Source: Eledone cirrhosa (Eukaryota). Taken from it: a stretch of 64,000 bases of DNA. How positions within the stretch are numbered: the stretch's first letter is position 1; each line of letters opens with the position of its first letter. Positions 3,868 through 55,609 of the stretch are shown here, in pieces. The stretch is taken from NCBI GenBank assembly GCA_964016885.1, contig OZ024743.1, forward strand, positions 197,966,001-198,030,000, read 5' to 3'. A program made the position numbers and the translations under genes. The notes under the pieces are model-generated. The model was not told where the DNA came from and searched no databases. It was given only the letters and a program-made list of their open reading frames with translations.

Positions 3868-4830
3868 AAGATTCCTCATTATTTGAGAATAAATGTTCTC
3901 TTTTTCAGTCTTTTCTATTATATTACATCTGCTGAACAGCTGATTTCCACTACTGTGGATGCCTTCTTTTCGCTGTCCCATATCACTATGTCTGGTTTGT
4001 TGTGTTTGGATTTTATTGGGGTTTTAACATGAGTATTCCTCCAGTACATTTTCATATTTGTATGTATATGTCCTCCCCATTACTGTAAAATTTTATGTTT
4101 ATTGTCGCAGCTATCCTTTATATATGATTGCATTGTATAGTTTTTTGGCAATTACATCATGCCTCCTAGGTATATAGTACCGTAGGCTCATCTTTGGACA
4201 GCTGCTTATGAGAGGGGGTGACATCTTTTATGTTAATATCGCCGAGTCTGCATCTGTTGTCTATTCTAAGTGTTTTGCCTGTATCCTTATCTCTTTTATG
4301 AATCAGGTGTTTTGTAGTTATTTCGTGTTCCTGGATTGCAAAGGCATATCCTTCAAAATGAGAACCAATAGCAGTTGTTGGTCCAAGACAGGCTACTTTT
4401 CTTACCTATGTTACTCTCACTTTGAGCTTCCTGTCATCTTAGCCATGCATAATTTTCTGCTGATAAGCATGCAGGTGTCATCCATGGCATCATTGTGGTA
4501 TTGCTGTGCCATTTCTTTGGGAGTCAATTTTTGCAAGGAGTATTTCCCACGGAGCTCCTTCCCAACTTTCATGGTATTATCTGTCTCGTGTAGACCGACT
4601 TGTTCAATAGATGGTATCAGATGCTTGGTGGTTTGTAGATACTGTTTGGACTGATGTTAAACCCCTGCTTCCTTGTTTACGTTTCTGGTAGAGGGAGTCT
4701 ATGATGCTCTTGATATGGAAATTGCCGGTGTTGGTGAGGATACTTCGGGTTTTAAAATCGATGGCTCGGATATCATCTATCGCCCAATCAAGTATTCTGA
4801 ATGTTGTTGTTAGGATAAACAAAGCCTGGG
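3868..4830 (-). mobile_element. Second degenerate R4/Dong-like fragment
   Basis: The reverse complement matches 1-740 (KTRSILTNTGNFH..LYQKRKQGSRGL; aaaccagacatagtgatatgggac..gtggaaatcagct); frameshifted. Confidence 0.8.
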
Positions 4831-4962
4831 CTTTCCTGATGATTTCCTTCCAATGAATCAGTTCTAGTTCCGTAGATGCCATTTCTATATTAAATTTGTT
4901 GTATACACTCTACTAATGTATTGAGTACCTTACTTACTGTAGTAACCCCCGATTGGACCCAG

Positions 4963-5061: not shown

Positions 5062-5203
5062 ATATATAGTTTAGAAAAAAAAGCCAGCGTCACAAAATAT
5101 TTACAATATGAATTCAAAGTAGGGAACGCACAGGACAAAGACAATGGAAAATAAGTCAACAACTGGAAATCACTACCCTTTCGGTTGGTTCATTAAGGTT
5201 GTA

Positions 5204-5251
<48 letters not shown>

Positions 5252-5254
<3 letters not shown>

Positions 5255-6456
5255 AAGTATGTATGTATGTATTCGTACATACATATATGTATACAGACGT
5301 ATGTACGTATACATACATATATGTATGTATATGTACATACATATATGTATACAGACGTACAGTAGTATGTATATATATACATACATGCACACACATATAT
5401 ATATATGCACGTATCGGTTTACCGAACATTTATTATAATGCTCGGTTTGTTTGTTTGTAAACAAACAAACAGTCCGAATTACGCCGTACAGTGTTTAGGC
5501 AACCACGTCACCTTTTTGTTCAACACTGACACAGGAACGATGTACTAGTTTTAAGCTTATTAGCTATCGTCAGCATCGTATACCTTCCTGCCAGATGGTT
5601 GAACGTCTGAAAGTATATACCTTCCTTATACATATTAACGGCTGAGCAGCCTAATTTGCATATCGAGTGAGTTCAGTCGGCCGGGCACACCGAAAACGAT
5701 AAATGGAATAGAATGAAACGAAATTTCATTTCTCACTCTTAGTACGGCACAAGGTCACGTGGTTGCCTAAACACCGTACGGCGTAATTCGGGCTGTTTGT
5801 TTGTTTACAAGCAAACAAACCGAGCATTATAATAAATGTTCGGGAAACCGATACGTGCATATATATATGCGTGCATCTATGTATATATATACATACTACT
5901 GTACGTCTGTATACATATATGTATGTACGTATACATACATACATACTTACATTTAAGTAAGTGCCGTACTAAGAGTGAGAAATGAAATTTCGTTTCATTC
6001 TATTCCATTTATCGTGTTCGGTGTGCCCGGCCGACTGAAATCACTCGATATGCAAATTATGCTGCTCAGCCGTTAATATGCATAAGGAAAGTATATACTT
6101 TCAGACGTTCAACCATCTGGCAGGAAGGTATACGATGCTGACGATAGCTAATAAGCTTGAAACTAGTACATCGTTCCTGTGTCAGTGTTGAACAAAAAGG
6201 TGACGTGGTTGCCTAAACACTGTACAGCGTAATTCGGGCTGTTTGTTTGTTTACAAACAAACAAACCGAGCATTATAATAAATGTTCGGTAAACCGATAC
6301 GTGCATATATATATGTGTGTGTGCATGTATGTATATATATACATACTACTGTACGTCTGTATACATATATGTATGTACGTATACATACATACATACTTAC
6401 ATTCAAGTAAGTGCCGTATTAAGAGAGAGAAATGAAATTTCGTTTCATTCTATTCC

Positions 6457-6462
<6 letters not shown>
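5252..6462. mobile_element. Older head-to-head insertion of the HHR repeat family (about 1 unit forward, 1.5 units inverted)
   Basis: Diverged homologue of the 466-bp unit; orientation switches at about 5750; flanked by (AT)n/(GT)n. Confidence 0.85.
6132..6174 (+). ncRNA. Minimal type I hammerhead ribozyme motif
   Basis: ACGATG-CTGACGA-tAGCT aata AGCTt-GAAA-CTAG-TA-CATCGT; stem I 6 Watson-Crick bp, palindromic stem III, GUA site. Confidence 0.85.
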
Positions 6463-6484
<22 letters not shown>

Positions 6485-6487
<3 letters not shown>

Positions 6488-8619
6488 TCGTTTCTGAATT
6501 TGTTTAGCAAGATTCTTTATCTGAAATCGTGTGTTGAAACCGATATTGTTATACTTTGGGAGGGTCATGTTGCCAATAAGAAACACACGCACCAGTTGCT
6601 TTCACTTCAATTTATTATAATAAATTTATAATAAATTTATAATAAATTTATAAATTTATAAATTTCTGGTTGGTTGGTTGGTTCCACAACCAGATAGTTG
6701 TTTATATATCGTCATAGTTCTTTCGTCACACACTCTGTGACCTCTTCAGTGACTGGGGATTCCTTTCTTTGTTTTTGTGCCTCTCCTTTGTTCTGTCCTA
6801 CGCCATTTTGTTTCTGTGTGTGTGTTGTGTGCTCAGTCTGCGCATGCGCCACATCCGGGTGTCTGTGTGTGTTTATGTTTATTTATTTATTTGTGTATTT
6901 ACATGTTACTGGTTGGTTGTTTGTTCTATGTGTGTGTGTGTTTTCATTTTGTCCTTAATTGTAAGTTGTGATGTTGCTGTTCCACTCATATTTTCTATTT
7001 AATTTTGGTTGTAATTCTTTTATGTTTATTGCCTCTGTAATTTGTCTAAACATTGCGTCTTTTCTGTGTGTAGATTCTATTTTTATTTCTATGTTCTATT
7101 TTAGCATGTTGGTAGAGTACAGATGATTCTTTACTATCTTGAAGGTCTCGCCAGTGTTCATTTATCCGTTCCCCTACACTACGAGCTGTCTCACCTATGT
7201 ACACTATATTTTTGTCTCTACATTGTCCTTCAGTTCATCTTATGCTATACACTACATTTCTAGTTTTACAGTTAATATGGGGGCTTATTTTACAGGTTAT
7301 ACATTTCTTATCTATACATGAGGGTCTTTGAAAAGGGTATGTCTTGCTAATAAGTGTTTTTACGGAGGTACCTGGTCTTTCTACTATCTTAATATTGAGT
7401 TTATGTTTATCTAGGGCCCTTCTAAATTTGTTAGCTAATTCACCTCTAGGGGTTGTATCGATGAACATTACACTCTGGTATTTATTGCTATCATACCATG
7501 AGTTTATTCTATTAGCCTTATTCCTAGTTCTTTCTATTCTATTTCAAAATTTGCTCCTATACAAGGGGCAGGTCCCATTTGTGTCATTATTTACCATTTT
7601 TTCCCATTTGGTTCTGGCTCCTCTATACACTCTGATTTTATCTCTCTGATTGTAGCCAGAGAACTGCATACGGTGGATGAAGTGTTGTATGTGTCTTTCT
7701 AGTTCTTCGGGGTTGCACATGCGGGACACGTTTCTCATCACCCGTACCAAATCCGCAATCAGTACGTTGATTTTGGTATGGTCCGAAACGGCCGAGTTTC
7801 GGTGGATCAGATGTTTGGAAGTCATGGGTTTGGCATAATGGGAATGAAGGATTTGTTTTTTGTTATTAATGGTATCTAACCAGAGCTCTGTGTCTAGTAC
7901 AGGTAATCGATGGTTGGGGTGTTTACTTGGGTAGTCTATAGTAACTCTAATGCTCTGGTGGATGGAGTTAGCTATTTGCTGGATGCTTTCCATTGTGTTT
8001 TTCTCTAGTTCCTGACTGTTTTATAGTGGGGGTGTCTTAACTACGATGTTTATATCATCAACGTAGCGGGAGTACATTATCAGGGTTAAGGGGTCTTCTA
8101 ATTGTTCTTTAAGTTTAAGTTTAAGTCTACTGTCCCACCATACCATGAATAAGTTAGCTATGTCGCCTACAATGCTAACACCAATGGCTGCTCCTTCCTC
8201 TTGGGCATATGTTTTTCCATTAAATTTGAACATATGTTCCTTAAGGGTTAGTTTTCGGCTGGCCCCTACCGCATGTGCAATCATTTTCTTCAGTTCATCG
8301 TGGTTTTCGGGTGTCCGTATGGCTCTGGTCCACCCGTTCCATCTATCTGTGTGGGTTTTCTTGGCCATTGAGGTAATGGTAGGTGGTCTGCCTCTTGCTG
8401 GTCTTGTAGGGCACAGGTTGCTAAGGTCATATGTGTCTAGGTAATTATTACTATAGGTAAGTTTAAGTAGGAGTCCCAGCTCACTGGTATCAATCCCACG
8501 GAACTCAACATTGCTCTCAATGATCATTTCTACGCATTTCTCCACAGCAAAATCCACGTCAATAGATGGATACAGGGACACAACATCCATACTACCTATT
8601 ATGCAGTTTGTTAGGTCCC

Positions 8620-8620
<1 letters not shown>
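6485..8620 (-). mobile_element. 5'-truncated Penelope-like element (RT, thumb, Cys linker, GIY-YIG, 3' pLTR family B), frameshifted
   Basis: [26 protein letters not shown] (8021-8620); LPVLD..HSHYAKP (7544-7993); CIDKKCITC..NVVYSI linker/EN start (7235-7468); (AT)n at both ends. Confidence 0.9.
6711..6753 (-). ncRNA. HHR motif in PLE pLTR (family B)
   Basis: GTCA-CTGAAGA-gGTCACA gagtg TGTGAC-GAAA-GAAC-TA-TGAC. Confidence 0.75.
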
Positions 8621-8688
<68 letters not shown>

Positions 8689-21281: not shown

Positions 21282-24200
21282 CCTGTGTCAGTGTTGAACA
21301 AAAAGGTGACGTGGTTGCTTTAACACCGTATGGCATAAATTCAGGCTGTTCAGTTTGTTTACAAACGAACAAAGCGACGTTAGCGCCGCTAAACTGATAC
21401 GTGCATATATGTATGTGTACCTGTATGCATATGTATGTATATATGTATATATATATATATATGTGCATGCTACTGTACGTCTGTATACATATATGTATGT
21501 ACGTATACATGCATACTTACATTTAAGTAAGTGCCATACTAAGAGTGAGAAATGAAATTTCGTTTTCATTTTGTTTCAATTTATCGTTTTCGGTATGCCT
21601 GACCGATTTAACTCACTCAATATGCAAATTAGGCTGCTCAGCCGTTAATTTTCATAAGGAAAGTATATACTTTCGAACGTTCAACTATCTGGCAGATGGG
21701 TAAACGGTGCTGATGATAGCTAACAAGCTTGAAACTAGTACATCGTTCCTGTGTCAGTGTTGAACAAAAAGGTGACGTGGTTGCTTTAACACCGTATGGC
21801 ATAAATTCAGGCTGTTCAGTTTGTTTACAAACGAACAAAGCGACGTTAGCGCCGCTAAACTGATACGTGCATATATGTATGTGTACCTGTATGCATATGT
21901 ATGTATATATGTATATATATATATATATGTGCATGCTACTGTACGTCTGTATACATATATGTATGTACGTATACATGCATACTTACATTTAAGTAAGTGC
22001 CATACTAAGAGTGAGAAATGAAATTTCGTTTTCATTTTGTTTCAATTTATCGTTTTCGGTATGCCTGACCGATTTAACTCACTCAATATGCAAATTAGGC
22101 TGCTCAGCCGTTAATTTTCATAAGGAAAGTATATACTTTCGAACGTTCAACTATCTGGCAGATGGGTAAACGGTGCTGATGATAGCTAACAAGCTTGAAA
22201 CTAGTACATCGTTCCTGTGTCAGTGTTGAACAAAAAGGTGACGTGGTTGCTTTAACACCGTATGGCATAAATTCAGGCTGTTCAGTTTGTTTACAAACGA
22301 ACAAAGCGACGTTAGCGCCGCTAAACTGATACGTGCATATATGTATGTGTACCTGTATGCATATGTATGTATATATGTATATATATATATATATGTGCAT
22401 GCTACTGTACGTCTGTATACATATATGTATGTACGTATACATGCATACTTACATTTAAGTAAGTGCCATACTAAGAGTGAGAAATGAAATTTCGTTTTCA
22501 TTTTGTTTCAATTTATCGTTTTCGGTATGCCTGACCGATTTAACTCACTCAATATGCAAATTAGGCTGCTCAGCCGTTAATTTTCATAAGGAAAGTATAT
22601 ACTTTCGAACGTTCAACTATCTGGCAGATGGGTAAACGGTGCTGATGATAGCTAACAAGCTTGAAACTAGTACATCGTTCCTGTGTCAGTGTTGAACAAA
22701 AAAGGTGACGTGGTTGCTTTAACACCGTATGGCATAAATTCAGGCTGTTCAGTTTGTTTACAAACGAACAAAGCGACGTTAGCGCCGCTAAACTGATACG
22801 TGCATATATGTATGTGTACCTGTATGCATATGTATGTATATATGTATATATATATATATATGTGCATGCTACTGTACGTCTGTATACATATATGTATGTA
22901 CGTATACATGCATACTTACATTTAAGTAAGTGCCATACTAAGAGTGAGAAATGAAATTTCGTTTTCATTTTGTTTCAATTTATCGTTTTCGGTATGCCTG
23001 ACCGATTTAACTCACTCAATATGCAAATTAGGCTGCTCAGCCGTTAATTTTCATAAGGAAAGTATATACTTTCGAACGTTCAACTATCTGGCAGATGGGT
23101 AAACGGTGCTGATGATAGCTAACAAGCTTGAAACTAGTACATCGTTCCTGTGTCAGTGTTGAACAAAAAGGTGACGTGGTTGCTTTAACACCGTATGGCA
23201 TAAATTCAGGCTGTTCAGTTTGTTTACAAACGAACAAAGCGACGTTAGCGCCGCTAAACTGATACGTGCATATATGTATGTGTACCTGTATGCATATGTA
23301 TGTATATATGTATATATATATATATATGTGCATGCTACTGTACGTCTGTATACATATATGTATGTACGTATACATGCATACTTACATTTAAGTAAGTGCC
23401 ATACTAAGAGTGAGAAATGAAATTTCGTTTTCATTTTGTTTCAATTTATCGTTTTCGGTATGCCTGACCGATTTAACTCACTCAATATGCAAATTAGGCT
23501 GCTCAGCCGTTAATTTTCATAAGGAAAGTATATACTTTCGAACGTTCAACTATCTGGCAGATGGGTAAACGGTGCTGATGATAGCTAACAAGCTTGAAAC
23601 TAGTACATCGTTCCTGTGTCAGTGTTGAACAAAAAGGTGACGTGGTTGCTTTAACACCGTATGGCATAAATTCAGGCTGTTCAGTTTGTTTACAAACGAA
23701 CAAAGCGACGTTAGCGCCGCTAAACTGATACGTGCATATATGTATGTGTACCTGTATGCATATGTATGTATATATGTATATATATATATATATGTGCATG
23801 CTACTGTACGTCTGTATACATATATGTATGTACGTATACATGCATACTTACATTTAAGTAAGTGCCATACTAAGAGTGAGAAATGAAATTTCGTTTTCAT
23901 TTTGTTTCAATTTATCGTTTTCGGTATGCCTGACCGATTTAACTCACTCAATATGCAAATTAGGCTGCTCAGCCGTTAATTTTCATAAGGAAAGTATATA
24001 CTTTCGAACGTTCAACTATCTGGCAGATGGGTAAACGGTGCTGATGATAGCTAACAAGCTTGAAACTAGTACATCGTTCCTGTGTCAGTGTTGAACAAAA
24101 AGGTGACGTGGTTGCTTTAACACCGTATGGCATAAATTCAGGCTGTTCAGTTTGTTTACAAACGAACAAAGCGACGTTAGCGCCGCTAAACTGATACGTG

Positions 24201-39302: not shown

Positions 39303-39530
39303 ATAAATGTAAGTATGTATGTATACGTACATACATATATGTATACAGACGTACAGTAGTATGTATATATATACATACATGCACACATATATATATATAT
39401 GTACGTATCTGTTTACCGAACATTTATTATAATGCTCGGTTTGTTTGTAAACGTATACATACATACATACTTACATTTAAGTAACTGCCGTACTAAGAGT
39501 GAGAAATGAAATTTCGTTTCATTCTATTCC

Positions 39531-39535
<5 letters not shown>
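39303..39535. mobile_element. Third, short head-to-head remnant of the 466-bp family (no HHR retained)
   Basis: Matches 5252-5462 forward and 6378-6462; (AT)n flanks. Confidence 0.85.
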
Positions 39536-39600
<65 letters not shown>

Positions 39601-54951: not shown

Positions 54952-55037
<86 letters not shown>

Positions 55038-55044
<7 letters not shown>

Positions 55045-55547
55045 ATACTTTGGGAGGGCCATGCTGCCAATAAGAAACACACGCACCAGTTGCTTTCACT
55101 TCAATTTATTATATATTTATAAATTTATAAATTTACAAATTTACAAACCTATAAATTTCTGGTTGGTTGGTTGGTTCCACAACCAGATAGTTGTTTATAT
55201 ATATAGTCATAGTCCTTTCACAGAAACAAAATGGCGTAGGATAGAAGAAAGGAAAGGCACAGAAACAAAGAAAGGAATCCCCAGTCACTGAAGAGGTCAC
55301 AGAGTGTGTGACGAAAGGACTATGACTATATATATAAACAACTATCTGGTTGTGGAATCAACCAACCAACCAGAAATTTATAGGTTTGTAAATTTGTAAA
55401 TTTATAAATTTATAAATATATAATAAATTGAAGTGAAAGCAACTGGTGCGTGTGTTTCTTATTGGCAGCATGGCCCTCCCAAAGTATAACAATATCGGTT
55501 TCAACACACTATTTCAGATAAAGAATCTTGCTAAACAAATTCAGAAA

Positions 55548-55551
<4 letters not shown>
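55038..55551. mobile_element. Fold-back pLTR (family B) with HHR at 55283-55327 (+)
   Basis: AGTCA-CTGAAGA-gGTCACA gagtg TGTGAC-GAAA-GGAC-TA-TGACT; arms match 6485-6815. Confidence 0.88.

Positions 55552-55609
<58 letters not shown>

Follow-up and report, generated by a model that had tools for sequence, protein, structure and literature searches.

An older subfamily of a probable non-LTR retrozyme in Eledone cirrhosa, with a predicted hammerhead ribozyme and Penelope-like insertion anatomy

The kind of element described here, its link to Penelope-like elements and the shape of its insertions are already published. Metazoan non-LTR retrozymes, as the accessible part of PMC7229834 presents them, carry one type I hammerhead ribozyme per unit, form short tandem repeats of low GC content and reach thousands of copies. 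The same holds for the family to which positions 5252-6462 of our window belong, the window being the whole stretch of 64,000 nucleotides that was analysed. The retrozymes of that paper have no ORF, LTR, PBS or PPT, and the present unit may lack them as well. The axolotl hammerhead HHR_Amex2 from the same source likewise has a 2-bp stem III and a stem II with U.U at its base. With 420-490 bp the unit lies at the upper end of the 150-450 bp stated there for metazoan retrozymes. Inverted arms are present here and find no mention in the accessible text of PMC7229834; cleavage and circular RNA were demonstrated for the retrozymes of that paper, whereas for the present family both are predictions.

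On the side of the Penelope-like elements, the consulted part of PMC8557442 describes a tail, a copy that is inverted and truncated, and insertion into TA targets. The tail has been tied to two start sites of reverse transcription with extension on both strands, and a Penelope element with a mutated ribozyme was still able to insert in vitro (PMC11167929). In the available text of Li et al. (bioRxiv 10.64898/2026.07.22.740005) eight of nine Xenopus dimers did not cleave. A constraint on the hammerhead matters against this background of mutants that insert in vitro and of vertebrate retrozymes that mostly stayed uncleaved when tested.

The locus and its hammerhead

The stretch 5252-6462 is a single head-to-head insertion of a non-LTR retrozyme of ~450 bp set in (TA)n (Table 1). 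The tandem-plus-inverted layout claimed in the first-pass annotation is confirmed: a minus-strand left arm of 1.1 units meets a plus-strand right arm of 1.6 units at 5750/5751, the arms are 97% complementary (5317-5750 versus 5961-6394), the direct repeats are spaced at 446/450, and the outer ends of both arms (5252, 6462) abut TA repeats. Frames overlapping the right end are only short and microsatellite-derived. Just left of the insertion, window positions 4500-4900 may hold, on the minus strand, part of an ORF from a different retroelement, and a third, short head-to-head insertion of the same subfamily (S25/F56) lies at 39304-39536, with 96-99% identity to the unit and an end before the hammerhead.

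Table 1. Features of the insertion at 5252-6462 and of its borders (positions of the window).
Feature	Positions	Strand	Remark
(TA)n/(TG)n microsatellite, target site	5202..5251	.	left end
Left arm, inverted unit	5252..5750	-	"no-tail" end at 5252
Period-58 repeat in left arm	5277-5404		TRF; short local duplication, microsatellite-like segment
Left-arm hammerhead	5537..5579	-	G12->A at 5552, predicted inactive
Head-to-head junction	5750..5751	.	joins two 5'-truncated arms at unit positions 1 and 237
Right-arm partial unit	5751..5960	+	without hammerhead
Full 450-bp retrozyme unit	5961..6410	+	subfamily S25/F56
TATGCAAATT block	6049..6058	+	contains octamer motif, invariant in 11/11 consensuses
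Extended stem I around hammerhead	6107..6193	+	fold z -2.5
Type I hammerhead, core intact	6132..6174	+	predicted cut after 6168
~60-nt "tail"	6402..6462	+	at right end only
(TA)n, right end	6463..6486	.	common to neighbouring Penelope-like insertion

In the plus copy stem I is formed by 6132-6137 and 6169-6174, followed inwards by the core CUGACGA (6138-6144), stem II (6145-6149/6154-6158, with a U.U at its base), GAAA (6159-6162) and a stem III of 2 bp that lies inside the palindrome ACUAGU (6162-6167). Positions 6138-6168 match the type I core throughout (C3 U4 G5 A6 N7 G8 A9, G12 A13 A14, A15.1-U16.1, H17), and the minus copy departs from it at G12, a catalytic residue of the hammerhead. 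This change in the GAAA of the minus copy, noted earlier, is real, as G stands at this position in the plus copy and also in the consensus of the subfamily. The plus hammerhead had been said to differ from the young 466-bp array of the window only at tolerant positions, and within its 43 nt we find three differences and no more: a stem I pair (6135, A-U versus G.U), N7 (6142, C versus T) and loop II (6152).

No Rfam model, those of hammerheads included, matched the window at gathering thresholds. The motif alone (53-64 nt) folds no better than shuffled sequence (z -0.2 to -0.8), and the fold reaches z -2.5 if the extended stem I is included; one deep family (L273) has an equivalent long stem of different sequence with z -6.4. 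The palindrome forms no hairpin, and pairing between two copies of it amounts to -4.8 kcal/mol. In the consulted part of PMC4209133 such a palindromic stem III is called the dimer type. The ribozyme may be of low activity, given the U.U of stem II and a stem III that would be too short in a monomer. The insertion holds at most one intact hammerhead per strand and would therefore not release a unit itself.

The longest run that is invariant over all 11 consensuses (see below) is TATGCAAATT, which exceeds the run GAAACTAGT of the ribozyme and lies within a predicted stem. A passage on newt satellite 2 in the accessible part of PMC2220036, together with the invariant octamer, prompted a reading of this block as a promoter of snRNA type, which we reject: the octamer occurs within 320 bp in none of 16 distinct U1/U2 upstream regions examined, and a matrix of the -60 element built from nine promoters scores the units like shuffles (35 to 199 of 200 shuffles score as high). 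The host U1/U2 genes (L371-L392, L401-L420) themselves have in common a TATA-like run around -30, a TCAGT element around -57 and, further out near -260, a motif resembling CCTCCCTT; the octamer is missing from their 320 bp.

Family size, age and conservation

A 31-nt pattern of the hammerhead at 6132-6174 has 25,528 exact matches in the 3.0 Gb of genome searched and none if reversed, so that the motif is no chance occurrence, while a looser pattern has 39,819 matches and 44 in the reversed control. Diagnostic 23-mers from the flanks match 485 times for S25/F56 and 7,330 times for the young subfamily. The family is of high copy number, with at least 25,000 hammerhead copies and many subfamilies. 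Its units of a few hundred bp stand head to tail, each with a type I hammerhead, and are dispersed over many loci; arrays of 11 to more than 30 such units occur with no ORF between the units, and 11 of the 69 sites of S25/F56 hold at least two hammerheads on the same strand.

We sampled 420 loci, including 42 U1/U2 genes, and one must keep in mind that this sample is small and mixed, being made up of the best matches to three units (two from the window, one deep) and, for several patterns, of the places that come first on contig 1. By clustering we obtained nine shallow consensuses that differ by 2-18% and two deep ones at a distance of 38-41%; these 11 leave aside clusters of fewer than four loci, and the one named "Fold" was grouped by hand from five copies 7-12% apart. 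Three pattern matches (L261, L263, L284) without similarity to the retrozyme unit were excluded. In a tree without a resolved root S25/F56 sits on a terminal branch of near-zero length. The deep sister families (L273, L291-L333, e.g. G000:C1:5738325-5752445) are ~39% diverged. Their cut sites are GUC or GUU, their stem II begins with a canonical G-C, and some of their arrays are young and exceed 30 units. A further array (L080, G000:C4:212924000-212933999) counts at least 20 units with a higher-order repeat of ~2.1 kb, which suggests a later duplication at the DNA level or a multimeric template. The young-array unit at window positions 21532-21880 lost the TTATAATAA block kept by all nine shallow consensuses and still reached at least one other chromosome (L040/L078).

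Copies within one insertion begin identical, so that their divergence dates the insertion. It averages 4.9% in S25/F56 (29 insertions) and 0.9% in the young subfamily (30 insertions), and multi-copy insertions with less than 0.5% internal divergence number 0 of 29 against 15 of 30 (Mann-Whitney p=1e-9), which bears out the description of S25/F56 as an older subfamily. The insertion at 5252-6462 stands at 3.2% and the young array at 0%. The plus, minus and partial units each differ from the consensus at four places, and none of these 12 differences is common to them. Decay after insertion is thereby supported, and the change of G12 to A at 5552 arose after insertion.

Once inserted, the core decays as well: in 115 copies of S25/F56 we counted 16 core changes where 22 are expected from flank rates (P=0.12). 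With eight subfamilies pooled the numbers are 35 observed and 51 expected (P=0.011), and changes within insertions are rarer in the core than in the flanks (0.74% versus 1.21%, p=0.016); lower mutability or unresolved subfamilies may therefore add to any contrast between core and flank. A change of C3 to U is found in three copies of the small S1 group, whose first consensus carried C3U and which falls below the four-locus cut of the consensus set; at two of these loci (L068 and L082) another copy in the same insertion retains C.

The claim that the ribozyme was kept while its flanks diverged holds across subfamilies for the core and the pairing, and it is not significant for the two subfamilies of the window from which it was drawn. 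Their consensuses differ by 3/43 substitutions in the motif and 30/257 in the flanks (p=0.44), and the longest identical run between the two window units, 6153-6212, has 38 nt of its length 3' of the 43-nt motif. Over all 11 consensuses, up to 41% apart, 0 of 11 core columns are variable compared to 124 of 244 in the flank (p=0.0008). With the nine shallow consensuses alone the flank count is 60/244 against the same zero in the core (p=0.07), or 83/244 if indels are counted (p=0.018). If the 43-nt motif is regarded simply as sequence, its conservation does not clearly exceed that of the flanks (15/43, p=0.07), and 24 of 288 windows are as conserved. Against the deep families this plain comparison fails (14/43 versus 101/251 in the flanks, p=0.40), so that of the proposed check of hammerhead against flank the part on the catalytic core and the part on pairing stand.

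For the pairing we compared 12 real copies, in which 7 of 13 stem pairs are changed on both sides and 93.8% of cells are paired, and most of the unpaired ones belong to the basal U.U of stem II; none of 500 shuffles and no slid control came near this value. The deep families rewrite three pairs in stem I and three in stem II. In two shallow subfamilies an A-U became U.G. Only A, C and U occur at position 17. These compensatory changes go back to a few events along lineages and should not be counted as 17 independent ones. Since hammerhead patterns served to find the deep families, the invariance of core and stem III in them is partly ascertained; the patterns left stem II free and fixed stem I at most at its closing pair. 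The covariation supports a three-helix hammerhead with open stem I, whose stem III is invariant and fixed by the search patterns. Among loci found by a flank-only pattern, written after seeing the loci, 14 of 15 have the core motif and one has a deletion.

A tree-based comparison of propagated and private changes (235 copies, 140 sites) gave 0/21 in the core versus 104/773 in the flank for changes at five or more sites (p=0.16), and 1/21 (p=0.34) and 3/21 (p=0.60) in the core for at least three and at least two sites; the direction is as expected without reaching significance, and parsimony on polytomies inflated some counts. In 2,777 contigs from one public run of the same organism seven variants with at least 1% of depth are listed for 6095-6235, none of them in the core, from a list that is incomplete in that the common variant 6179 G>T is absent. 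Runs X5 and X6, from other organisms, gave six and seven low-depth contigs with the same subfamily variants, which we take as trace DNA and not as a cross-species test. A search of titles and abstract openings, in itself weak evidence of absence, returned no report that sets core against flank over the subfamilies of a retrozyme.

Selection on the ribozyme in propagating lineages, as the first-pass annotation proposed, is thus supported by the deep families and the compensatory pairs and not by the window pair it cited. We infer self-cleavage to be the selected property. At population level this is evidence that, in an animal retrozyme, the hammerhead is constrained only during spread.

Insertion anatomy and the neighbouring Penelope-like element

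Grouping by coordinates gave 171 complete sites, of which 101 are head-to-head, 69 one-directional and one a compound of two subfamilies; none is tail-to-tail. At the head-to-head sites one ~60-nt tail is present in 82 cases, two tails in none and no tail in six, with 13 unclassified. The absence of two-tailed cases among 88 classifiable ones has P about 4e-10 under independent choice of ends. Tail ends meet the TA run within 8 nt in 87 of 93 cases, and 64 of 103 untailed ends score for the (TA)n target by a strict motif. A family 39% diverged follows the same rule (16 of 26 head-to-head, 14 of these 16 one-tailed), which together with the missing tail-to-tail sites is an argument that the architecture belongs to the mechanism and is no assembly error, as had been suggested.

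Truncation of the 5' end at the cut site occurs in 6 of 118 cases, the junctions being scattered along the unit with no pile-up. Since both arms at 5252-6462 also run through the cut site, a circular or multimeric template is indicated. The inverted 5'-truncated copy, the tail at one end and the microsatellite target (TA)n are traits of Penelope-mobilised sequences, and as this anatomy equals the published Penelope-like signature, a Penelope enzyme likely copies the retrozyme RNA.

Such an element adjoins the locus. Window positions 6484-8622 (minus strand) hold a 5'-truncated, broken Penelope-like element (RT, CxxxxCxxC linker, GIY-YIG) in the same TA run, with its RT and GIY-YIG as weak Pfam matches below cut-off and a hammerhead-like motif of its own near 6700-6755 that has a 6-bp stem II. 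A remnant of its family at 55037-55554 is head-to-head, one-tailed and set in (TA)n, and element and remnant have the same ends as the retrozyme. As parent of the retrozyme the element was rejected: there is no homology, and in comparisons with its 3' end the score of the unit is equalled by 11 to 61 shuffles out of 100. Sequence common to the pLTR of an autonomous partner was likewise not found with this neighbour as the one element compared.

Proposed origin and relation to known systems

We consider it likely that 5252-6462 represents an older, high-copy, non-coding non-LTR retrozyme, cut by its own predicted type I hammerhead and copied into (TA)n in a Penelope-like manner. In tandem transcripts two hammerheads would pair via the palindromic stem III and excise RNA of unit length, which probably circularises. 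A Penelope protein would then nick both strands of a TA run, and reverse transcription would begin at two fixed sites ~60 nt apart, one per strand, leading to two diverging arms. Continued spread would be open only to lineages with a working ribozyme.

The units might instead be 5'-truncated pseudo-LTRs of an autonomous Penelope-like element, the ribozyme being selected there rather than in a small RNA of its own. The adjoining coding element does have the same tail, inversion and TA target, hammerhead-bearing truncated pLTRs are called common in the consulted part of PMC4209133, and Li et al. derive retrozymes from pLTRs in the available text (bioRxiv 10.64898/2026.07.22.740005). The long arrays without ORF, the few matches to the proteins of the neighbouring element in about 380 loci and the lack of likeness to its 3' end make this origin unlikely. 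Amplification of a satellite at the DNA level or assembly artefacts, with conservation due to chance and ascertainment, could be read from the non-significant window pair and from young arrays that are 100% identical; this account is highly improbable and largely refuted by the fixed 3' ends, variable 5' junctions and strict head-to-head polarity (197 sites), by opposite-strand joints that are present in contigs of public runs too, and by the 3% difference between the arms at 5252-6462, which is not expected from a collapsed or duplicated read.

A further alternative concerns what is conserved. It seems quite improbable to us that an overall RNA fold, such as a compact structure or a protein-binding site, is kept and the core merely rides along, as invariance falls on the unpaired catalytic letters and covariation on the paired ones, and position 17 is limited to what cleavage allows. 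Invariant blocks and hairpins in the flanks, a circular unit that folds at z -8 (partly from the microsatellite palindrome), the equally conserved windows elsewhere in the unit and the insertion of ribozyme mutants in vitro (PMC11167929) speak for a fold. Returning to the retrozyme reading, we put forward an extension of it tentatively, as possible though short of probable: one RNA circle would be copied from both strands of the TA break from obligatorily different start sites ~60 nt apart, a rule kept across families diverged by 40%, with the constrained dimer hammerhead needed only upstream, for the circle. If this two-site rule is true, the graded subfamilies would record, by natural mutagenesis, which properties a Penelope enzyme needs in a borrowed RNA.

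The family fits the Penelope-dependence proposed by Li, Clavereau and Pollet (2026, bioRxiv 10.64898/2026.07.22.740005), as far as the accessible text sets it out. Their retrozymes also occur as monomers, dimers and multimers and together with Penelope-like elements; the link is drawn from pLTR homology in Xenopus and from insertion anatomy here, and the conservation of core versus flank that we report is absent from the consulted main text of their work. With EN+ Penelope-like elements the present family shares the inverted 5'-truncated copy, the often one-ended tail and TA targets (PMC8557442 and PMC4209133, in the parts consulted; PMC11167929), two adjacent RT starts with extension on both strands (PMC11167929) and the palindromic stem III as a dimer ribozyme (PMC4209133). 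Unlike them, as the same sources depict them, the retrozyme probably encodes no protein, and its tail measures ~60 nt and not 30-40. For twin priming by Penelope enzymes the one-tail rule makes a sharp prediction that can be tested. The strict pairing seen here (82 of 88 classifiable sites, 0 two-tailed) differs from an in vitro reaction in which the strands do not differ in start site (PMC11167929).
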